DNA of 32,000 bases from Nitrososphaerales archaeon (GTDB lineage Archaea > Thermoproteota > Nitrososphaeria > Nitrososphaerales > Gagatemarchaeaceae): NCBI GenBank assembly GCA_035515635.1, contig DATJBB010000003.1, positions 187,536 through 219,535 on the forward strand, read 5' to 3'. The notes beneath the pieces were generated by a model, which saw nothing but the letters and a program-made list of their open reading frames with translations, was not told the DNA's origin and searched no databases. Shown here piece by piece: positions 12,853-21,241 of this stretch (the first letter of the stretch is position 1; every line of letters starts with the position of its first letter). The position numbers and the translations under genes are program-made.

Positions 12853-14646
12853 ATGAACAGGCGTAGATTCATCGAGGTACTGGGCGGCGGGGCAATAGGG
12901 GTGGCTGCGCTCGGGTACGGCGTCTCAAGGCTGCTCCCACCGAAGCACGCCGAGCCATCAGGGAAGCTCGACCCACAGTCCCTGACGAAGTTCGTCGACC
13001 CGCTCCCCATCCCAGCCGTGATGGTTCCCACGGCCCCCGGAGGCACTTACGAGGTGAAGATGACCCAGATCAGCCAGAAGCTCCACGACCAGCTCCCCGC
13101 AACCACCCTGTGGGGGTACAACGGGTCCTCTCCCGGCCCATCCTTCGAGGCGGTCAAGGGGACGCCCATCTCGGTCACCTACCTCAACGAGCTCCCGACG
13201 ACGCACCTCTTCGAGGACGCGATCGACCATACCATCGCCCACGTCCACGGCTACCCGGACGTCCGGACGGTCGTCCACCTCCACGGCGCCGAGGTCAAGG
13301 CGGACAGCGACGGCAACCCGACGGCCTGGTTCTCCTTCGCCTTCGAGACGACGGGGCAGGGGTGGTCGCACCAGACCTACACCTACCCAAACTCGCAGGA
13401 GGCAGCAACCCTCTGGTACCACGACCACGCGATAGGGACGACCCGGCTCAACCTCTGCGCCGGCCTCGCGGGCTTCTACTTCCTCAGGGACCCGACCCTC
13501 CAGTTCGAGGCAAGCCTCCCCGGGGGCTCTGACGACAGGCCGCACGCCGGAGCGGGCCCCTACGAGGTGCCCCTCATGATTCAAGACAGGCTCTTCAACG
13601 CCGACGGCTCGATCCTCTATCCGGACCAGGGGGTCAATCCCGACGTCCATCCGCAGTGGATACCCGAGTACTTCGGGGACACGATCCTCGTCAACGGGAA
13701 GGTCTGGCCCTACCTCGAAGTCGAGCCCCGCAAGTACAGGTTCCGGTTCCTCGACGCGTCGAACGCGCGCTTCTACGACCTCTCGTTCGCGAACAAGCCG
13801 GTGACCATCAACCAGATCGGGACAGACGGCGGCTACCTCCCCGAACCGGTGGCGATCAACGACGTCTTCATCGCCCCGGCGGAGCGGGTCGACGCTGTCG
13901 TCGACTTCTCCGCGATGGAGGTCGGCGACACCGCGGTCCTCTACAACACCGCCCCGGCGCCTTATCCCGGCGGGGACGTCCCAGACCCCGACACCATCGG
14001 CCAGATAATGCAGTTCAGGGTGGTGGAGGCGAAGGGGAAGGACAACAGCGTCCTGCCCACCTCCATGGTGCCAGTGCCCCAGCTCCCGTTCCCCGGGGAG
14101 TCGGTCAGCGCTACGAGGAGCCTCATCCTCATCGAGTACGACACGGACGCCGGGCCGGTCACCGGCCTACTCAACAACGCCGCCTACGACAACACGATAT
14201 CGGAGAACCCCGTCCTCGGCTCGACCGAGATCTGGGAGCTGATCAACCTCACCGAGGATGCCCACCCGATCCACCTCCACCTCGTCCAGTTCCAGATATT
14301 CAACCGACAGGAGTTCGATGCCGACAAGTACCTGGCCGACTACCAGACGGCCAACCCTGACATGTCCCCCGGCTCGGGGCCTGGGACAGTCCTCGACCCC
14401 ACGCCGTACTTCGAGGACGACCCCTTCCTGGTCACACCTCAGGAGGCCGGGTGGAAGGACACCGTCAAGGCCTACCCGGAGGTGATCACCAGGCTGATCG
14501 TCAGGTTCGCCCCGAGGGACGGGACCGACTTCGCCTTCGACGCCACCGCCGCCCCCAACTACATCTGGCACTGCCACATCCTCGAACACGAGGACAACGA
14601 GATGATGAGGCCGTACCAGGTCCTCCCGCGGACAGTGGCCCCCTGA
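12853..14646 (+). CDS. Tat-exported three-domain multicopper oxidase (CotA/bilirubin-oxidase-like laccase)
   Basis: Twin-arginine leader MNRRRFIEVLGGGAIGVAALG. All four copper motifs are present: VHLHG, WYHDHA, HPIHLHL and HCHILEHEDNEMM. GGGAGG lies 6 nt before the ATG. Confidence 0.9.
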   Translation: MNRRRFIEVLGGGAIGVAALGYGVSRLLPPKHAEPSGKLDPQSLTKFVDPLPIPAVMVPTAPGGTYEVKMTQISQKLHDQLPATTLWGYNGSSPGPSFEAVKGTPISVTYLNELPTTHLFEDAIDHTIAHVHGYPDVRTVVHLHGAEVKADSDGNPTAWFSFAFETTGQGWSHQTYTYPNSQEAATLWYHDHAIGTTRLNLCAGLAGFYFLRDPTLQFEASLPGGSDDRPHAGAGPYEVPLMIQDRLFNADGSILYPDQGVNPDVHPQWIPEYFGDTILVNGKVWPYLEVEPRKYRFRFLDASNARFYDLSFANKPVTINQIGTDGGYLPEPVAINDVFIAPAERVDAVVDFSAMEVGDTAVLYNTAPAPYPGGDVPDPDTIGQIMQFRVVEAKGKDNSVLPTSMVPVPQLPFPGESVSATRSLILIEYDTDAGPVTGLLNNAAYDNTISENPVLGSTEIWELINLTEDAHPIHLHLVQFQIFNRQEFDADKYLADYQTANPDMSPGSGPGTVLDPTPYFEDDPFLVTPQEAGWKDTVKAYPEVITRLIVRFAPRDGTDFAFDATAAPNYIWHCHILEHEDNEMMRPYQVLPRTVAP

Positions 14647-14705
14647 CCAGAGGAGAGCCTTCTGTCCCCAACAGAGCCGCCTGCCTCCTGGACCGGGGAG
14701 GGTTC

Positions 14706-16472
14706 CTGACCACGGCCTCGCCGCGCCTCGCTCCGGACCGCCGAACCAGGGCCAAGTCCGCGCTGGCGCTCTGGCTCCTCCTTGTGGCGGGCATCGCGTC
14801 GGCCTCCGTCTCTGTCCGCCACGCCGACGCCTTCCAGGCCAGCGGCCAGTACGCCGCGACGGTCATCGGCCAGGGTAACTTCACCTCCAGAATCGCCGGT
14901 CTCTCGCCGCAGAACCTCTACCAGCCCTTCAGGCCTACCTTCGATTCCTCTGGCGACCTCTGGGTCGGGGACGAGGCAGACCACCGGGTCGTCGAGTTCA
15001 TGCCCCCGCTGACCGACGGAGAGCCTGCATCCCTCGAGATCGGGGAGCTGAACTTCGCGGAAGGGGCGACCAACGGCTCGCTCCCCGCTTCCCAGGACAC
15101 CCTCTTCGGCCCCGTCGCCGTGGCCTTCGACAAGTCGGGAGACCTCTGGGTGGCCGACTTCGTCTACAACCGGGTCACCGAATACAAGCCTCCTTTCGAG
15201 GACGGGATGAACGCCTCCCTGGAGCTCGGCCAGCCTGCGGGAAGCTCGCAGTTCACGAAGCATCCTGCCCAGTCCCCCTCGATGGGCCTGAACGCGCCGG
15301 TCGCTCTGGCCTTCGACTCGGCTGGGGACCTCTGGGTCGTCGACAGGGGGAACAACAGGCTCGTGGAGTACGCCCCTCCCTTCGTCTCGGGGCAGACGCC
15401 CTCACTCGTCGTGGGACAGCCCTCTCTGAACAGCAGCGCAGGTGCCACCACCCAGTCCGGGCTCAACGGCCCTGAGAGCGCGGCCTTCGACTCCTCCGGG
15501 AACCTCTGGGTGGTCGACGAGGGGAACGACCGGGTCCTCGAGTACGGAAACTCTTCCCTTGAGAGCGACGGTCCGCGAGCAGTCCTCGAGCTGGGCCAGC
15601 GCGCAGGTCCCGGCGAGTTCGTCTCCAACGGCTCCGAGGTCTCCCGGTCCACGTTCGGCGCCCCCATGGGAGTGGCCGTCTCTCCCTGGGGCGACCTACT
15701 CGTCTCCGACCGTTCGGGGAACAGAATCCTGGGGTTCGAACCTCCCTTCTCGGACGGGATGAACGCATCCTACGAGATAGGCCAGCATGCCGGCCCCTCC
15801 CAGTTCGCCGCAGCGCCCGCATCCGTCACGCAGAACGGGCTCCACAACCCCCTCGGTCTCGCCTTCGACCCCTCTGGGAACGTCTGGGTGGCCGACCAGT
15901 TGAACGCTCGGGTCCTTGAGTTTAGCTCGCTGGCAGCGGTCACCTCTGGTACGGACGTCTCCGCGACCGCGACGGGCGCTTCTGACAACGAGTCCTCCAC
16001 GACCGGGCTGTCCATGTCGGTGAAGGAGACGTCCTCCGCGTCGGTCAACTTCTACTCGGCGAAGCTCTCCGCGCAGCCTCCCGGGTCGGGCACCCTGCCC
16101 TTGTCCGGGAGTCGGGTCTTCTACCAGGCGAAGGTGTCAGGCGGGAGCGGGGACGTCGCGATCTGCGTCCGCGACCCTCGGGCGTCCAACTCGACGTCGA
16201 TGATGTTCTTCGACGGCGCCTCGTGGATCGGCGCGGGCGACCTCAAGGCAACAAGCGGGGGTTCGATATGCGGCGACGTCCCGAGCGCCACTTTGAGCTC
16301 CCTCACCCTCCTCGCCGTAACCGAGGCGCCCGGCCCGCCCCTAGCTTCGCCTTTGCTCCAGGCGGCGGCCCTCCTGGCCGCTGCAGTCGCGTTGGGCACG
16401 ATATCCTACATCGTCCTGAAGACGCGCCCGGCGGGGTCTAAGACGGGGCAACGACGAGAAATCCTAGTATGA
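14706..16472 (+). CDS. Anchored six-bladed NHL-repeat beta-propeller with a C-terminal beta-rich domain and TM anchor; start codon unresolved
   Basis: Same frame as track ORF 14451..16472. There are six repeats of the type FDSSGNLWVVDEGNDRVLEY. The signal-peptide-like segment is RRTRAKSALALWLLLVAGIASASVSVRHADA and the C-terminal TM is LLQAAALLAAAVALGTISYIVL. No ATG/GTG/TTG occurs between the laccase stop and GTG 14784. The start given is a hypothetical CTG preceded by GGGGAGGG (see findings). Confidence 0.75.
   Translation: MTTASPRLAPDRRTRAKSALALWLLLVAGIASASVSVRHADAFQASGQYAATVIGQGNFTSRIAGLSPQNLYQPFRPTFDSSGDLWVGDEADHRVVEFMPPLTDGEPASLEIGELNFAEGATNGSLPASQDTLFGPVAVAFDKSGDLWVADFVYNRVTEYKPPFEDGMNASLELGQPAGSSQFTKHPAQSPSMGLNAPVALAFDSAGDLWVVDRGNNRLVEYAPPFVSGQTPSLVVGQPSLNSSAGATTQSGLNGPESAAFDSSGNLWVVDEGNDRVLEYGNSSLESDGPRAVLELGQRAGPGEFVSNGSEVSRSTFGAPMGVAVSPWGDLLVSDRSGNRILGFEPPFSDGMNASYEIGQHAGPSQFAAAPASVTQNGLHNPLGLAFDPSGNVWVADQLNARVLEFSSLAAVTSGTDVSATATGASDNESSTTGLSMSVKETSSASVNFYSAKLSAQPPGSGTLPLSGSRVFYQAKVSGGSGDVAICVRDPRASNSTSMMFFDGASWIGAGDLKATSGGSICGDVPSATLSSLTLLAVTEAPGPPLASPLLQAAALLAAAVALGTISYIVLKTRPAGSKTGQRREILV
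14913..15923 (+). repeat. Six tandem NHL-type blades (protein-level repeat, period about 58-64 aa) inside the CDS
   Basis: The core [FV]-D/S-x-S/W-G-[DN]-[LV]-[WL]-V-x-D-x4-R-[VIL]-x-[EG]-[FY] recurs at ORF residues about 159-183, 218-245, 280-307, 338-365, 402-429 and 464-491. Between blades lie PPFxDGMNASxExGQ linkers. Confidence 0.8.
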
Positions 16473-17369: not shown

Positions 17370-17414
17370 AGACGCTCGCGTTATTACCTCCTTAACCGGG
17401 GGTTCGGGCCTGCG

Positions 17415-17927
17415 ATGAAGTACACAAGCGTCGTGGTCGACGACAAGGAGCACTGCCTCGAAGTCATGAGGCAGATGGAGGAGGAGTTCAAGAAGGGGAA
17501 CGAGTCGTTCTTCATCAGGGTGATCGAGGACGAGCCCAGCCTCGTCCTGAGGGTCCACGCGGTGACCATACTCGCGGACCTCGGGAGCGAGGCCGCAATC
17601 CCCGCCCTCTCGCTCGTCCTACTGCACGACCCAGACCCGTTGGTAAGACACGAGGCCGCCTTCACGATGGGCCAGATAGGCCTCACCTCGGCTGTCAAGG
17701 CCCTCGAGGCAGCCACCACCAAGGACAAGGACCCCATAGTCAGGCACGAGTCCGCCGCGGCGCTCGGCTCCATCGGGAGCCAGACGGCCAGGAAGACGCT
17801 GGAGGCGGCGCTCAAGGACAAGGACGAGCTTGTGAGCAACTCGGCGGCCGCTTCGCTCTTCAACCTGGAGTTCCTGCGGACCTACTCCGTGGGCGCGACC
17901 GCAAGGGACAGGATGCCCCGCCCCTAG
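17415..17927 (+). CDS. HEAT-repeat protein resembling one half of deoxyhypusine hydroxylase
   Basis: Four HEAT-like repeats. Two His-Glu dyads, LVRHEAAFTMGQIG (H79/E80) and IVRHESAAALGSIG (H111/E112), sit 32 residues apart. A TATA-like TTATTACCTCCTTAAC lies about 20-35 nt upstream. Confidence 0.75.
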   Translation: MKYTSVVVDDKEHCLEVMRQMEEEFKKGNESFFIRVIEDEPSLVLRVHAVTILADLGSEAAIPALSLVLLHDPDPLVRHEAAFTMGQIGLTSAVKALEAATTKDKDPIVRHESAAALGSIGSQTARKTLEAALKDKDELVSNSAAASLFNLEFLRTYSVGATARDRMPRP

Positions 17928-18460
17928 AGCCGTATCCTCGCCACCAGGTACCCCTTCCCCTCCTCGAACTCTGCCTGCGCGAACGCCGACGCCACCACCA
18001 CCCTGAACCCCTCGCTCTTGCTGCCGTGCCTGAAGACCCTCCCCGCCTTCAGGTCCCTAATGTAGACCTCCCCGCCCGGCCTCACCACCCTCGAGACCTC
18101 GGCGAGCGCCTTCGCAGGGTCGGCGAAGTGGTGGAACGACGCCATCGAGATCGCCCTGTCCACCTCCCGGTCGGGTATCTCTCCCATGTCCTCGGCGCCT
18201 GCGACAACAACGACTACGTTCGAGGCGCCGGCCTCCCCTGCCCTCCGCCTGATCTCCGCGGCCCTCTTGGGGTCGGGCTCGACGGCGTAGACCTTGCCCT
18301 CAGGCCCGACGAGCTTGGCAGCTGCGAATGAGTAGTAGCCGTACCCCGCCCCCAGGTCGGCGACCCTCATCCCACTAGCCACGCCGGCCTCGGCCAGCCT
18401 ACCCTCCGGTGGCGCGCTCCGTCGACGGAAGTACTCGACCGCCCGCAGCCAGGCGCCCAT
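17924..18460 (-). CDS. Class I SAM-dependent methyltransferase
   Basis: Track ORF 17924..18574 trimmed to ATG 18460. Motif I is VADLGAGYGYYS, followed by VYAVEP, and motif IV/post-I is RVVRPGGEVYI. It overlaps the convergent HEAT gene by 4 nt. Confidence 0.8.
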   Translation of the reverse strand: MGAWLRAVEYFRRRSAPPEGRLAEAGVASGMRVADLGAGYGYYSFAAAKLVGPEGKVYAVEPDPKRAAEIRRRAGEAGASNVVVVVAGAEDMGEIPDREVDRAISMASFHHFADPAKALAEVSRVVRPGGEVYIRDLKAGRVFRHGSKSEGFRVVVASAFAQAEFEEGKGYLVARIRL

Positions 18461-18485
18461 CTCCCCGGCTTGAGTCCTATCCTGC

Positions 18486-18500
18486 CCTAAAATCCTTAAA
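18486..18500. promoter_or_regulatory. Back-to-back TATA-like boxes in a divergent promoter
   Basis: The sequence is CCTAAAATCCTTAAA. Read on the minus strand, ATTTTAGG is about 26 nt from ATG 18460. Read on the plus strand, CTTAAAG is about 25 nt from TTG 18525. Confidence 0.45.
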
Positions 18501-18524
18501 GTGCCTCCGCGCTCCTTCCCGGAG

Positions 18525-19274
18525 TTGAAGCTCAAGGGCAAGGTGGCCGTCGTGACCGGCTCGACCACAGGCAACGGCGCGGCGATAGCCCGGGCGTTCG
18601 GCCACGAGGGGGCCGACGTGGTGGTCCACTACAACCGCTCGGCCGCCGAGGCGAACAAGGTGGTCTCCGAGATAAGGAAGGCCGGCAGGGACTCGTTCGC
18701 CGCGAAGGCAGACATCTCGGTCCCGGCGGAATGCAAGAGGATGTTCAAGGAGGTCGAGAAGAGGTTCGGCAGGGTCGACGTCCTGGTCAACAACGCCGGC
18801 CTCGCGGACGGGACGATATGGAACTCCCCCATAATGAGCCTCAACAGGGAGATGTGGCTCAGGGTCTTCTCTATCGACGTCTTCGGGGCGTTCGACTGCG
18901 TCCAGGGCGCCCTCCCGCTCATGCGCGGAGGGGGCTCGATAGTCAACGTCTCCTCCACCCCCGCCCTCGCGGGCGACACTCAGGGGCTCGTATACGGCTC
19001 GGCGAAGGGCGCGGTCCTCACGATGACAAAGATGCTCGCCAAGAGCCTCGCCCCGAAGGTCAGGGTGAACTGCATGGTCCTCGGCTCGATAAACACCGGC
19101 TGGCTGAAGTGGTTCGACCAAGGCCAGGTGGAAGCGCTAAAGTCCTACATCCCGATGAAGCGGTTCGGGGAGCCGACGGATGTGGCCAACCTCGCCGTCT
19201 TCCTGGCGAGCGACGACTCCGCCTTCATGACCGGGCAGGGGGTTGTCCTCGACGGCGGAGAGGTCACAGACTGA
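18525..19274 (+). CDS. Short-chain dehydrogenase/reductase (FabG-like)
   Basis: Same frame as track ORF 18501..19274. TTG 18525 gives the classic SDR start MKLKGKVAVVTGSTTGNGAAIA and respects the TATA spacing. NNAG and the catalytic S...YGSAK are present. Confidence 0.85.
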   Translation: MKLKGKVAVVTGSTTGNGAAIARAFGHEGADVVVHYNRSAAEANKVVSEIRKAGRDSFAAKADISVPAECKRMFKEVEKRFGRVDVLVNNAGLADGTIWNSPIMSLNREMWLRVFSIDVFGAFDCVQGALPLMRGGGSIVNVSSTPALAGDTQGLVYGSAKGAVLTMTKMLAKSLAPKVRVNCMVLGSINTGWLKWFDQGQVEALKSYIPMKRFGEPTDVANLAVFLASDDSAFMTGQGVVLDGGEVTD

Positions 19275-19276
19275 CC

Positions 19277-19492
19277 CTAGTCGGCCGCCTGGTAGAGCCC
19301 GCCCGCCCTGTCTATCTTCGAGAGCGCGACGTCCACTTCGTCCCCTTCAGAGACCGTCCCCTTTTCGACGGCCTTGTCCCATAGGTCGATGTAGACCTCC
19401 AGCGCCTCCCTGACGTGCGGCGGCTTGCCCTTCTTCGTCTCCCTCAGCTTCGCAAGGTAGTCCCTGAGGAGGAGCGCCTGACCAGCCGGCAT
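19277..19492 (-). CDS. Small hypothetical protein (71 aa)
   Basis: Last ORF of the minus-strand operon, 27 nt downstream of the decarboxylase-family gene. The composition is balanced (K/E/D-rich), unlike off-frame ORFs. No recognisable family. Confidence 0.5.
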   Translation of the reverse strand: MPAGQALLLRDYLAKLRETKKGKPPHVREALEVYIDLWDKAVEKGTVSEGDEVDVALSKIDRAGGLYQAAD

Positions 19493-19519: not shown

Positions 19520-20494
19520 TTAATCGCCGCTCCTTCCTACGCGGCCTACCCTGGCGCCCTTCCCGACGCCCGAGGTCAGCGTCTTGTAACCCATGTGCGA
19601 GATCGCCCTCCTCACCTTCTCCTCGTCGCCATCGCTGGTGTTGATGAAGACAGAAGGCCCGGTCTGCATCGAGAAGTAGGCCTCCACCGAGTTCGACCTG
19701 AGCTCCCTCACCTTTGTTATCACCCTTATCGTGTCAGGGCTCATCACCACCAATCTGTTGGCGCCTGTCATTGTGATGCTGTGGAGCTCCAGGGTGTCCT
19801 GCTCGACCAGCTCCCCGACCTTCTTCAGGTCGCCGCCCTTGATCGCCTTCTCCATCTCGTCGCACCTCTTCGAGGCCGACTCTATCCTCGCCTTGAAGAA
19901 GGGCGATGACTCCACCTCCCTGTGTGCGTCCTCCGTCTTGACCGAAGACCAGAGCGGAACGATGACCATCCGGAGCGGGAGGTCCTTCTCGTCGGCGAAC
20001 TTCTCCGCATATGTGTCCTCGTACCCCTTCCCGGCGTAGAGCCTTGAGAACCCTCCGACCACCGTCCTCGATGCGGAACCGGCGAACAGCCGCGCGACCC
20101 TCGAGAGCTCGGTGTAGTCCGGCTCGCCGCCGTCCACCGCATGGAACACGGCCATGGTCACCGCGGCCCCGGCGGACGACGAGAAGCCCAGCCCCTTGGC
20201 GTCCACCCTGGGGAAGTTCCGAGAGTCGAAGCGGAGGCCGAGTTCCTCGAACGGCTTGCCGGCGAGCTTCTGGGAGACCGCCTGGATCCGTCTCAGCGCG
20301 TCCTCGTTCCCCTTCCCCTCGACGAGGAGCACTCCCTTGCCACCTTCAGCCTCGCTGACGACCACCTCGCTCCCGAGCGACGTGGTGTTGACCGAGATGC
20401 TGTCGTGATAAGGGAGCCTGAGCTTCCAGTCCTTCAGGCCGTGGTACTTGACCAACGCCTGCATGGTGTTCGCCGTCGACTTGAAAGGAGTCAA
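19520..20494 (-). CDS. GHMP-kinase-fold protein of the mevalonate diphosphate decarboxylase family, non-canonical active site
   Basis: Family blocks are ALVKYHGLKDWKLRLPYHDSISV, GLGFSSSAGAAV and ARLFAGSASRTVVGG. AYFSMQTGPSVFI replaces the canonical ..DAGPN.. block. The TTG start overlaps the upstream stop by 4 nt. Confidence 0.85.
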   Translation of the reverse strand: MTPFKSTANTMQALVKYHGLKDWKLRLPYHDSISVNTTSLGSEVVVSEAEGGKGVLLVEGKGNEDALRRIQAVSQKLAGKPFEELGLRFDSRNFPRVDAKGLGFSSSAGAAVTMAVFHAVDGGEPDYTELSRVARLFAGSASRTVVGGFSRLYAGKGYEDTYAEKFADEKDLPLRMVIVPLWSSVKTEDAHREVESSPFFKARIESASKRCDEMEKAIKGGDLKKVGELVEQDTLELHSITMTGANRLVVMSPDTIRVITKVRELRSNSVEAYFSMQTGPSVFINTSDGDEEKVRRAISHMGYKTLTSGVGKGARVGRVGRSGD

Positions 20495-20934
20495 CCCTCG
20501 ACCTCTATCCTGAGCGTGCCGGGAGCGCCTTGGGATTTCAAACTTCTCACGATTTCTCGGGGGATGTCCACGGCCCCAGATTCGGCCCTGATGGCCAGCG
20601 TGCGCGCGCAGACGAATCCGCTCTTCCTCACCACCATGTCCCTCGGGTCCTCGAGGACCAGGTCCTTGCTCCCGCTCGCCCAGAAAGAGAACACCCCTGC
20701 TGGCGCGACCACGGTCAGCTTCACCCTCGCGCCCTCGGTCTTCAGGGCCGCCTTGAGCTGTGGAGAGAGCTGCGCAACCCCTTTCGAGGCGCCCACCCCC
20801 AAGATGCAGTCGCCCCTTTGAGTAAGATGGGTCTCCGTCGTTATCTCGACGGTCCTCTCGTGAGTCGCGAGCACCATGGGGTGGCCGGTGAACGGGACCA
20901 CTTCCACGACCGAAGCTTCCTCAAGAGCCCTCAT
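20491..20934 (-). CDS. Conserved archaeal protein, DUF371-like (from memory)
   Basis: Track ORF 20491..21156 trimmed to ATG 20934 (147 aa), because the upstream 74 codons are R/P/S/W-rich junk. The core THERTVEITTETHLTQRGDCILGVGA resembles the DUF371 signature. Confidence 0.6.
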   Translation of the reverse strand: MRALEEASVVEVVPFTGHPMVLATHERTVEITTETHLTQRGDCILGVGASKGVAQLSPQLKAALKTEGARVKLTVVAPAGVFSFWASGSKDLVLEDPRDMVVRKSGFVCARTLAIRAESGAVDIPREIVRSLKSQGAPGTLRIEVEG

Positions 20935-20962
20935 GGACGCCGACCGGCCCAGCCTCGCCTGA

Positions 20963-21241
20963 TTAACGATTCGCCTGGGCGACTGAGGCGGTGGGCTGCA
21001 GGCCGTTGCAGTGACCGCACCGTTCGGCCCCGTCCGCGACCAGGGTGGAGCAGAAGACGCAGAACCTGTACCCGGAGGGCGGCTCCACCCTCTCCGTGGA
21101 CTCGGCCACGACGAACCCCGCCACCATCGCGGCCGACCCTCCTGCGATGAGCGCAAGCCACGCCGTCCCGTCCAGCGCGACGAACAGCACGACCCCGGTG
21201 AGGACGATCACACCGCCCGACACGACGAGGCTTGACCGCAC
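20963..21241 (-). CDS. Small membrane protein with a C-terminal zinc ribbon
   Basis: Two hydrophobic spans (VVSGGVIVLTGVVLFVAL and WLALIAGGSAAMVAGFVVA), then CVFC-x12-CGHC. GTG start. It competes with overlapping off-frame ORFs (20931..21524 minus, 21045..21539 plus) that look artefactual in this stretch. Confidence 0.5.
   Translation of the reverse strand: MRSSLVVSGGVIVLTGVVLFVALDGTAWLALIAGGSAAMVAGFVVAESTERVEPPSGYRFCVFCSTLVADGAERCGHCNGLQPTASVAQANR

Follow-up and report, generated by a model that had tools for sequence, protein, structure and literature searches.

A half-size HEAT-repeat protein of Nitrososphaerota as a candidate deoxyhypusine hydroxylase

Hypusine on translation factor 5A is essential in eukaryotes. 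The modification is completed by an iron enzyme, deoxyhypusine hydroxylase (DOHH), described for human (PDB 4d4z and 4d50) and yeast (Lia1), in which a single chain of about 300 residues contains eight HEAT-type repeats and four His-Glu (HE) dyads, two in each half. The iron ligands of the human enzyme are H56, H89, E90, H207, H240, and E241 (PMC3306375). Archaea are said in the literature to lack this enzyme, with no archaeal DOHH known to papers of 2012, 2016, and 2018 or to a 2021 review (PMC3306375, PMC5178350, PMC6105217, PMC8153317), and hypusine was chemically reported decades ago in archaea, among them the Crenarchaeota Sulfolobus, Thermoproteus, Pyrodictium, and Acidianus (PMC5178350). 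The HEAT_PBS/HEAT_2 type of repeat is found in DOHH and also in CpcE/CpcF, NblB, E. coli YibA, and alphaRep proteins, and it implies no function.

The window analyzed here is a stretch of 32,000 nucleotides from a Nitrososphaerales archaeon, and the relevant features are collected in Table 1. On balance, we favor the reading that the gene under study encodes a half-size deoxyhypusine hydroxylase, a probable homodimeric variant of DOHH. The earlier note had described an open reading frame with four HEAT repeats at this position, and both the sequence and an AlphaFold (AF2) model agreed with that description. The product scored above the gathering thresholds of two Pfam families, HEAT_2 (E 6e-32, 110 bits) and HEAT_PBS (47 bits), and the model (pLDDT 94.8) was an all-helical solenoid in which an N-terminal cap hairpin is followed by four HEAT hairpins. 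Homologues with E<=1e-5 numbered 710, and the best 120 of these 710 were 153-174 residues long, nearly all of them 169-170.

Table 1. Positions in the window of the candidate gene, elements of its product, and adjacent features
Feature	Position	Strand	Remarks
TATA-like box TTATTA	17381..17386	+	29 nt 5' of the start codon; read from the sequence
Gene for half-size DOHH-like HEAT-repeat protein	17415..17927	+	ATG to TAG, stop codon included; 170 aa
N-terminal cap hairpin, residues 11-39	17445..17531	+	Helices 11-26 and 30-39 (DSSP, AF2 model)
His-Glu dyad 1, H79/E80 in L-V-R-H-E-A-A-F-x-x-G-Q	17649..17654	+	Equivalent to human H56/E57 and H207/E208
His-Glu dyad 2, H111/E112 in V-R-H-E-S-A-A-A-L-G-S-I-G	17745..17750	+	Equivalent to human H89/E90 and H240/E241
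Fourth HEAT repeat, helix A, residues 138-154 LVSNSAAASLFNLEFL	17826..17876	+	Unit alignment and conservation
C-terminal tail, G160-P170, ...GATARDRMPRP	17892..17924	+	Conserved
Short-chain dehydrogenase (SDR) gene, downstream syntenic neighbor	18501..19274	+	Pfam adh_short_C2, E 1e-58

An element reading GTTATTA or GTTTATAG lies at an equal distance 5' of the gene in 17 related loci. The sequence leads us to infer a separate promoter for this gene and an mRNA with a short leader or none. The gene appears to carry its own TATA-like promoter and does not share an operon with the hypusine pathway.

The motifs and residue numbers of human DOHH on which the earlier note had relied were found to be correct when compared with the sequence of PDB 4d4z over residues 1-289. 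Its claim of colinearity with one half of DOHH also held up, as BLASTP aligned the reading frame to both human halves (33% and 27% identity) with HE placed on HE, and the flanking repeats that it had quoted occupied the same alignment columns in the archaeal and human proteins. In the unit alignment helix A of the fourth repeat, LVSNSAAASLFNLEFL, was colinear with human VAETCQLAVRRLEW and VRESCEVALDMYEH, and the fourth-repeat pattern is common to DOHH and the window protein. Also shared are the two dyads, which are 32-33 residues apart in each half (32 residues in the window protein), and the contexts L-[VLF]-[RK]-H-E-x-[AG]-[FY]-x-x-G-Q and V-R-H-E-[AS]-A-x-A-L-G in which they occur in DOHH and the window protein. 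The sequence comparison supports the view that the window protein is conserved, corresponds colinearly to one half of DOHH, and carries the two dyads of the metal site. The eight repeats and four dyads of a full DOHH chain were not present, the window protein being a single four-repeat unit with an N-terminal cap and two dyads. Unlike DOHH, it has 170 residues rather than about 300 and two dyads per chain instead of four, and a di-iron site would require dimerization. It also has an additional helix at the N terminus and a conserved tail at the C terminus, and its host is an archaeon. The cap helix (residues 11-26) has no counterpart in a human DOHH half.

The earlier note had proposed a survey of the dyads in orthologues. 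Both were kept in all 158 near-full-length thaumarchaeal loci, from both thaumarchaeal clades, together with G86 and Q87; these orthologous loci are 37-85% identical and include Nitrosopumilus, Nitrosopelagicus, and Nitrosotalea. The dyads were likewise invariant in 120 of 120 close homologues. In an alignment of the eukaryotic, DPANN, and L081 two-unit proteins (see below), ten columns per half were invariant (H, E, A+2, G+6, L, V, H, E, G+6, and G+9), and all ten matched residues conserved in the family at >=98% across 159 sequences. The residues equivalent to every iron ligand of one DOHH half are strictly conserved in the family. Elsewhere in the protein, M21, E22, and F33 of the cap hairpin fell among the columns conserved at >=98% in the same 159 sequences, and conservation was also seen for V140, S143, A144, N150, and F153 of the fourth repeat. 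The tail residues A163, R166, P168, R169, and P170 were invariant in alignment A1, and the tail is replaced by ...FAKLTGG in the AOA-type clade; model confidence was low at this end of the window protein, where the 10-residue blocks from residue 151 averaged pLDDT values of 85 and 66.

The comparison with DOHH at the level of whole sequences, also suggested in the earlier note, and of folds gave a divided answer. Human DOHH (4d4z) was the best natural sequence match in the PDB, with E values of 3.5e-20 for the single sequence and 1.1e-29 for the family profile; outside the alphaRep entries it was followed, in the profile search, by a designed HEAT homotrimer (6veh, 3.6e-24) and by CpcE (1.5e-6). 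Foldseek superposed the model on 4d4z_A with an rmsd of 1.8 Å over 127 columns, one of the lowest values of all listed matches and the lowest among those of more than 100 columns. The top PDB matches overall were consensus-designed alphaRep binders, with DOHH the closest natural structure. The overall profile, on the other hand, showed no preference for DOHH over generic HEAT repeats. The family scored 79.3 bits with an HMM of DOHH halves versus 79.5 bits with a generic HEAT HMM, and the window unit scored 77.8 versus 83.7 bits. For the DPANN two-unit proteins the DOHH-half HMM led by 35 bits, and for generic units the generic HMM led by 79 bits. The mean identity of the family was higher to consensus-like generic units (37%) than to eukaryotic halves (32%). 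Global similarity was therefore dropped as a criterion for membership of DOHH, since neither identity nor HMM log-odds separated the family from generic HEAT proteins.

The window protein shares with the generic HEAT_PBS/HEAT_2 proteins a repeat of 31 residues and the framework D-x-x-x-x-V-R-x-x-A-A-x-A-L-G-x-I-G, and differs from them in carrying HE at the variable concave positions. The earlier assertion that generic PBS-type repeats normally lack HE was sound: among the 1805 repeats that 147 generic HEAT_PBS-type proteins contain, four (0.2%) had HE at the two variable positions after V-R, and no two consecutive repeats did.

Two sets of fused relatives bear on how a half-size protein might work. 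The first consists of DPANN ('Nanoarchaeota') proteins of ~280 residues (P0281, P0297, P0302, P0304, P0292, P0299, and P0290). These are archaeal, as is the window protein, and share with it the dyad-1 motif E-[LI]-V-R-H-E-A-A-F, but unlike it they are full-size single chains with four HE dyads. Their second dyads have the sequences V-[KI]-H-E-C and V-[IL]-H-E-[GA], they are about 28-30% identical to the unit of the window protein, and they cluster with eukaryotic DOHH at 90% bootstrap. Genes for a NOG1-type GTPase and for PCNA are found in their neighborhoods, and genes for DHS (deoxyhypusine synthase) or aIF5A are absent there. The second is P0146, encoded on the DPANN contig L081. A profile search of the representative library was dominated by long multi-repeat HEAT proteins through their summed scores, and the useful matches were P0140, P0146, and P0264. 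As called, P0146 has 363 residues and contains two units in tandem, each with both dyads and an N-terminal cap helix, the cap element 'EMEKxFxxKNxxYF' opening each half. Its true start may be M53, the first 45 residues being hydrophobic or of low confidence.

The halves of P0146 are 45-48% identical to thaumarchaeal units, and 63-64% identical to the best AOA-type loci, and they group with the thaumarchaeal single units at 68% bootstrap. Database matches to P0146 were single-unit archaeal proteins, followed by a group that includes bona fide eukaryotic DOHHs (E about 1e-24). Its model superposed on the whole of human DOHH with a TM score of 0.82-0.83 over about 300 columns, versus <=0.52 for the other whole-length matches listed; the alignment behind this model contained eukaryotic DOHHs, so the DOHH-like arrangement of the lobes is not independent evidence. 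Taken together, the two-unit eukaryotic DOHHs, the DPANN proteins, and P0146 lend indirect support to the idea that the half-size protein may act as a homodimer.

The surroundings of P0146 also distinguish it from the window protein. On L081 it follows, on the same strand, a gene for DHS and three genes of the polyamine pathway (an Orn/Arg decarboxylase, a CN_hydrolase similar to N-carbamoylputrescine amidase, and an agmatine deiminase), and the cluster is flanked by two IF5A-N-like reading frames, one of which scores above the Pfam cutoff, with KAGKHGGPK as its loop. Linkage of a dyad-bearing HEAT gene to DHS was seen on this one contig; close DHS loci of Woesearchaeota conserve the pair of DS and Orn/Arg decarboxylase with no HEAT gene, making the L081 arrangement so far unique. 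A viral origin of L081 was considered and rejected, as searches of IMG/VR gave nothing relevant and the DHS of the contig resembles those of DPANN, with 65-77% identity to the DHS of Woesearchaeota and Nanoarchaeota.

In Thaumarchaeota, tblastn searches of 160 loci found no DHS or aIF5A gene within 8-10 kb of the HEAT gene except at locus L039, where a canonical aIF5A gene lies 280 bp away in convergent orientation; neither gene is present in the window. An SDR gene on the same strand lies 3' of the HEAT gene in most of 63 of the 80 species-representative loci, and it is best taken as context. The conserved neighbors in this clade are the SDR gene, a 71-residue reading frame, an MVD-like gene, and DUF371. 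A convergent Rad50-like (SMC-type) reading frame, for which the equivalent in L085 has SMC_N/AAA Pfam matches, takes the 3' position in the AOA-type clade, and Mre11-like (metallophosphoesterase), HerA-like, thioredoxin-like, and ribosomal-protein-L15e-like frames are also found there. The conserved neighbors of either clade give no clue to a pathway.

Invariant dyads at loci that mostly lack pathway linkage could also be those of a metalloprotein that is related to DOHH and does another job. Such a protein would bind iron or another metal and act on a substrate other than aIF5A, for example a polyamine or a side chain of some other protein, or it would be a sensor or carrier of metal or O2. 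The change of neighbors from SDR in one clade to Rad50-like and thioredoxin-like frames in the other points in the same direction, as do an overall sequence no nearer to DOHH than to generic HEAT proteins and a cap helix and conserved C-terminal tail with no clear DOHH counterpart. We nevertheless consider this rather unlikely. We know of no HEAT-repeat protein other than DOHH with such dyads, the likeness extends beyond the ligands to the G-Q that follows dyad 1 and to the fourth-repeat pattern, and the company kept by P0146 (DHS, polyamine, and IF5A-like genes) and by the gene at L039 (aIF5A) argues against another job.

That the protein is a non-catalytic HEAT adaptor of the PBS-lyase type, a small helical-repeat binding module using its His-Glu pairs for protein–protein contacts, is harder to reconcile with dyads in consecutive repeats that were absent from the 1805 generic repeats and yet are invariant across a phylum, and it would leave unexplained both the repeated fusion to two-unit proteins and the DHS context. 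Pfam does recognize only HEAT_2 and HEAT_PBS, the top PDB matches are designed binders, and the generic HMM equals the DOHH-half HMM in score. The weak NCBIfam matches that would suit an adaptor all missed their equivalog cutoffs (NblB 50.5 vs 300 bits, CpcE 22.9 vs 330, and CpcF 15.9 vs 220); unlike CpcE/CpcF and NblB, the window protein belongs to a host without phycobiliproteins, and phycobilisomes are, to our knowledge, absent from archaea. An adaptor is judged improbable. Less credible still would be a partner or regulator that lacks catalytic activity and serves the hypusine pathway by binding aIF5A or DHS, for example to protect the reversible deoxyhypusine intermediate without hydroxylating it. 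The linkage at L081 and L039 would be compatible with binding alone, and each chain of half size offers a single iron site, but a binder would not need the iron-ligand residues of one DOHH half that are all strictly conserved here (PMC3306375).

If the protein is a half-size hydroxylase, as favored above, two copies would pair about a two-fold axis in imitation of the pseudo-symmetric N and C lobes of the eukaryotic enzyme. H79, H111, and E112 of each protomer would hold one iron of a non-haem di-iron centre at the interface, and E80 of each protomer, by analogy with human E57 and E208, would help to hold the deoxyhypusine side chain by its terminal amine. The substrate would be supplied by DHS, which would make deoxyhypusine on the Lys of the K-P-G-K-H-G loop of aIF5A; the di-iron centre would bind O2 as a peroxo-diiron(III) species and hydroxylate the aminobutyl chain to give hypusine. 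The host lineage is presumably aerobic, which would make an O2-dependent step feasible. A wider reading, which we put forward only tentatively, is that Thaumarchaeota, abundant ammonia oxidizers among them, make true hypusine with a homodimeric half-size di-iron hydroxylase resembling the ancestral DOHH, that duplication and fusion of such a unit gave the two-lobed enzyme at least three separate times (in eukaryotes, in the DPANN ~280-residue proteins, and in the L081 lineage), and that the complete hypusine pathway is of archaeal and not eukaryotic origin.

If true, the proposal would allow a concrete and cheap test of the archaeal hypusine question, as the hosts are cultured and their aIF5A can be analyzed by mass spectrometry. 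It would also supply a model, minimal and symmetric, for di-iron oxygenases built of HEAT repeats, and it would be relevant to the way in which archaeal components were put together into the eukaryotic translation apparatus. An O2-dependent enzyme could not work for Thermoproteus and Pyrodictium, which are anaerobes, and a half-size DOHH alone would not account for the hypusine of anaerobic Crenarchaeota. To call the protein a candidate for 'the missing archaeal DOHH', as had been done, was too broad, since chemically identified hypusine comes from Crenarchaeota and the family was found only in Nitrososphaerota, with fused forms in DPANN, in a comparison that had the Sulfolobales and Thermoproteales genomes outside it.

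Searches of the literature on DOHH or hypusine with Thaumarchaeota, DPANN, or Asgard returned no paper making a link to a half-size HEAT protein, and the literature searched gave no chemical data on hypusine versus deoxyhypusine for Thaumarchaeota. The statement that no archaeal DOHH has been assigned agrees with the publications consulted (PMC5178350, PMC6105217, PMC8153317, PMC3306375), but not with database labels. Many members are named 'deoxyhypusine monooxygenase' in IMG, UniRef A0A075GMQ9 is labeled 'HEAT repeat-containing PBS lyase (DOHH)', and KO-type automatic annotation already makes a DOHH call for some members. If the function is confirmed, the label 'HEAT repeat domain-containing protein' on thaumarchaeal genomes would need revision.

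The open reading frame singled out in the earlier note was recovered with its 170 residues and with both His-Glu (HE) dyads in the contexts quoted there. Pfam assigned the protein to HEAT_2 (E 6e-32) and HEAT_PBS, while no NCBIfam equivalog was attained, the top match being NblB at 50 bits against a cutoff of 300. The AlphaFold2 model (pLDDT 94.8, pTM 0.90) comprised an N-terminal cap hairpin, four HEAT hairpins, in agreement with the four HEAT-like repeats first noticed, and a mostly non-helical C-terminal tail of lower confidence. A TATA-like box conserved among related loci lies 27-35 nt 5' of the start codon, which suggests that the gene may have a promoter of its own, and in the closest clade a conserved CAGGGGGT motif stands between this element and the ATG.

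Features of the window and of the related loci (L-numbers)
Feature	Position	Strand	Remarks
Half-size DOHH-like gene	window 17415-17927	+	ATG-to-TAG ORF, 170 aa
Dyad H79/E80	window 17649-17654	+	in the same ORF
Dyad H111/E112	window 17745-17750	+	in the same ORF, 32 residues from H79/E80
TATA-like element	window 17381-17386; equivalent position in L001-L053		GTTATTA or GTTTATAG; conserved
Class I SAM methyltransferase	window 17924-18574	-	Methyltransf_11/25/31; between HEAT and SDR genes
71-aa ORF	window 19277-19492	-	conserved in 66/80 related loci
Diphosphomevalonate-decarboxylase-like gene, then DUF371 gene	window 19520-21156	-	MVD-like_N, MDD_C, M3K_C
Multicopper oxidase, then large NHL-repeat protein	window 12853-16472	+	oxidase 597 aa
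Five-gene module	L081 2857-9902	one strand	DHS (PF01916), Orn/Arg decarboxylase, CN_hydrolase (N-carbamoylputrescine-amidase type), agmatine deiminase (PAD_porph), fused HE-HEAT gene; Logan SRR21363124 contig, DPANN-like
Canonical aIF5A	L039 2089-2484	-	Pfam IF5A-like_N + eIF-5a
DPANN ('Nanoarchaeota') full-size DOHH-like genes	L087:10001-10849; L169:6001-6849; L171:6001-6849		~280 aa, four His-Glu dyads

The two positions that follow V-R vary among PBS-type HEAT repeats of the generic kind. In a set of 1805 repeats drawn from 147 generic HEAT proteins, those with the greatest similarity to the family profile, HE occupied these two positions in four (0.2%) and never in two consecutive repeats, which bears out the assertion that such repeats normally lack the dyad. 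The survey of orthologues proposed as a check showed both dyads to be invariant in the best 120 homologues and in 158 of 158 near-full-length loci, which share 37-85% identity with the window protein. Conserved along with the dyads in these loci were L76, V77, A81, F83, G86, Q87, V109 and R110, and further A114, G118, G121, S143, A144, N150 and F153.

The relationship to deoxyhypusine hydroxylase (DOHH) was studied with a human sequence identical to PDB 4d4z over residues 1-289, and the human motifs and numbering cited in the earlier note are therefore correct. BLASTP placed the window ORF colinearly on the C half (33% identity) and the N half (27%), HE on HE. Thaumarchaeal units (four repeats with two dyads), eukaryotic N and C halves and other two-unit proteins were then aligned unit by unit, and all were colinear across the four repeats; the proposed colinearity with one DOHH half thus held in both comparisons. 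The colinear features include G-Q after the first dyad and the pattern V-x-[ENDS]-[ST]-[AC] ... L-[ED]-aromatic in repeat 4, and in an alignment of two-unit proteins 10 of 10 per-half invariant columns matched residues conserved in at least 98% of thaumarchaeal sequences.

Consensus-designed alphaRep proteins headed every PDB match list, as is expected for any PBS-type HEAT protein. The best match outside designed proteins was human DOHH (E 3.5e-20 for the single sequence and 1.1e-29 for the family profile), and the next non-alphaRep entries were 6veh, a computationally designed HEAT homotrimer (3.6e-24), and CpcE (1.5e-6). Foldseek superposed the window model on human DOHH with an rmsd of 1.8 Å over 127 columns, among the lowest listed. 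Mean identity of the family was 32% to eukaryotic halves versus 37% to consensus-like generic units, and a DOHH-half HMM and a generic four-repeat HMM scored the family equally, at ~79 bits each; with the same pair, the generic model won by 79 bits for generic units and the DOHH model by 35 bits for DPANN doubles. At the sequence level, global similarity does not discriminate between DOHH and generic HEAT proteins for this family. On these comparisons the family is intermediate, with DOHH-specific positions carried on a generic PBS-HEAT framework. The window protein lacks a defining feature of DOHH, namely eight repeats and four dyads in one chain, and for this reason is classed as a variant of the DOHH kind rather than a plain member.

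Each chain holds one DOHH-like half. In human DOHH, described as 'a symmetrical dyad' (PMC8153317, PMC3306375), the iron ligands of one half are H56, H89 and E90, or H207, H240 and E241 (PMC3306375), and the residues equivalent to one such set are strictly conserved in the family. The window protein is somewhat favored as a homodimeric di-iron enzyme that would hydroxylate deoxyhypusine on aIF5A. A two-fold homodimer would recreate the pseudo-symmetric dyad of DOHH, with H79, H111 and E112 of each chain binding one iron and E80 helping to place the deoxyhypusine amine; the di-iron centre would then activate O2 for the hydroxylation. The same ligand set could also belong to a related metalloprotein that acts on a different substrate or serves as a sensor, a less probable reading, and the thaumarchaeal gene neighborhoods, considered below, are uninformative on the pathway. 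With a framework as generic as this one, a non-catalytic HEAT adaptor may be envisaged, but it is improbable beside the invariant dyads. A catalytically inactive partner of the pathway is the least likely of these readings.

Two-unit relatives bear on the proposed pairing of units. A representative search yielded P0146, a 363-aa protein with two tandem unit copies, each with its own N-cap helix and both dyads. Its nearest relatives were single-unit archaeal proteins (46-56% identity), followed by bona fide eukaryotic DOHHs (Galdieria, plants, yeasts; E ~1e-24, 30-34% identity over ~75% of the length), with which DPANN proteins of ~280 aa and four dyads interleaved. In a neighbor-joining tree, which is short and of limited resolution, the P0146 halves grouped with the single units of Thaumarchaeota (68% bootstrap), the N and C halves of the DPANN proteins paired with each other (100%), and so did the eukaryotic halves (78%). 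This grouping by lineage suggests that single units may have been duplicated and fused more than once, as would be expected if two units together form the working enzyme. The P0146 model matched whole human DOHH with a TM of 0.82-0.83 over ~300 columns, all other listed whole-length matches reaching at most 0.52; because the model's alignment included eukaryotic DOHHs, the superposition indicates compatibility with DOHH and is not independent proof. The DPANN full-size proteins clustered with eukaryotic DOHH (90% bootstrap), favored the DOHH-half HMM by ~35 bits, and themselves look like archaeal DOHH candidates that have gone unrecognised. In L087, L169 and L170 their gene runs into the end of a NOG1-type GTPase gene in convergent orientation; in L171 the GTPase gene lies ~3 kb away.

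The P0146 gene is the last of five co-directional genes in L081, a cluster reported here as a side observation that may represent a compact archaeal 'hypusine module'. The deoxyhypusine synthase (DHS) is 65-77% identical to those of Woesearchaeota and Nanoarchaeota, pointing to a DPANN archaeon as the source of the contig. The cluster is flanked by two divergent ORFs that carry an IF5A N-domain, one above the Pfam threshold with the loop KAGKHGGPK and the other reading ...KRAKTGKQGHIKINLEGTNIITG with the loop KTGKQGHIK; the canonical C-terminal OB domain was not recognised by Pfam in either. At the N terminus both have a long acidic extension that appears to be disordered. The DS-decarboxylase pair is also present in related Woesearchaeota, where the HEAT gene is missing, which makes L081 a striking but isolated case. 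Of the 160 thaumarchaeal loci, one had a pathway gene nearby, L039 (JAKAPW010000012.1, a thaumarchaeal MAG; region 1302-2484), where aIF5A and the half-size DOHH-like gene are convergent and 280 bp apart; the other neighbors were clade-specific and uninformative on the pathway.

The nearest homologues are 169-170-aa proteins of Thaumarchaeota/Nitrososphaerota MAGs. When one genome was scanned for each GTDB species, 80 loci emerged, by their titles from Nitrososphaerota, Thaumarchaeota, Nitrososphaerales or unclassified-archaeon MAGs, Candidatus Gagatemarchaeum among them, one locus being labelled 'bacterium'. A second, AT-richer clade of 162-aa proteins (>526 relatives, 80 loci used) is abundant in marine and soil metagenomes, and exact-sequence matches assign it to Nitrosopumilus, Marine Group I, Ca. 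Nitrosopelagicus and Ca. Nitrosotalea; the family thus has a broad distribution in the phylum that takes in the ammonia oxidisers. This clade (P0519-P0610; L088-L167) has an invariant-looking C terminus, ...F-A-K-[LM]-T-G-G, in place of which the window's clade ends ...R-D-R-x-P-R-P. In the homologue P0301 the C-terminal tail DRKSTRLNSSHSQISYAVFCLKKK precedes unrelated sequence, an arrangement that looks like an assembly or contamination chimera rather than a real domain.

Some Crenarchaeota with chemically reported hypusine are anaerobes. The evidence bears out the broad claim of 'the missing archaeal DOHH' only in part: a conserved DOHH-half counterpart exists in Thaumarchaeota, whereas the chemical evidence for hypusine comes from Crenarchaeota (PMC5178350). 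That no archaeal DOHH had been assigned agrees with four publications, according to which no orthologue is known (PMC3306375, PMC5178350, PMC6105217, PMC8153317), and no paper was found linking DOHH or hypusine with Thaumarchaeota, DPANN or Asgard, but it does not agree with database labels: IMG calls many members 'deoxyhypusine monooxygenase' and UniRef A0A075GMQ9 is a 'HEAT repeat-containing PBS lyase (DOHH)'. The idea was thus latent in automatic annotation, as far as can be seen without published discussion or test.

The gene order of the window is identical in peat or soil metagenome contigs. At E<=1e-8 the 80 related species loci contained no match to the multicopper oxidase or to the NHL-repeat gene; the NHL-repeat protein, 673 aa as a maximal ORF and 562 aa as called, has a hydrophobic C-terminal stretch. 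The methyltransferase occurs in only 14 of 80 related loci, and where it is absent the SDR gene mostly follows the HEAT gene directly. An apparent 74-nt methyltransferase/SDR overlap was dismissed as an artefact that arises from taking the maximal ORF, as the lengths given by gene callers are 148-178 aa. The 71-aa ORF, without a Pfam match, always lies on the minus strand between the SDR and MVD-like genes. The MVD-like and DUF371 pair is syntenic in >60 of 80 loci and may be part of an archaeal mevalonate-pathway variant.
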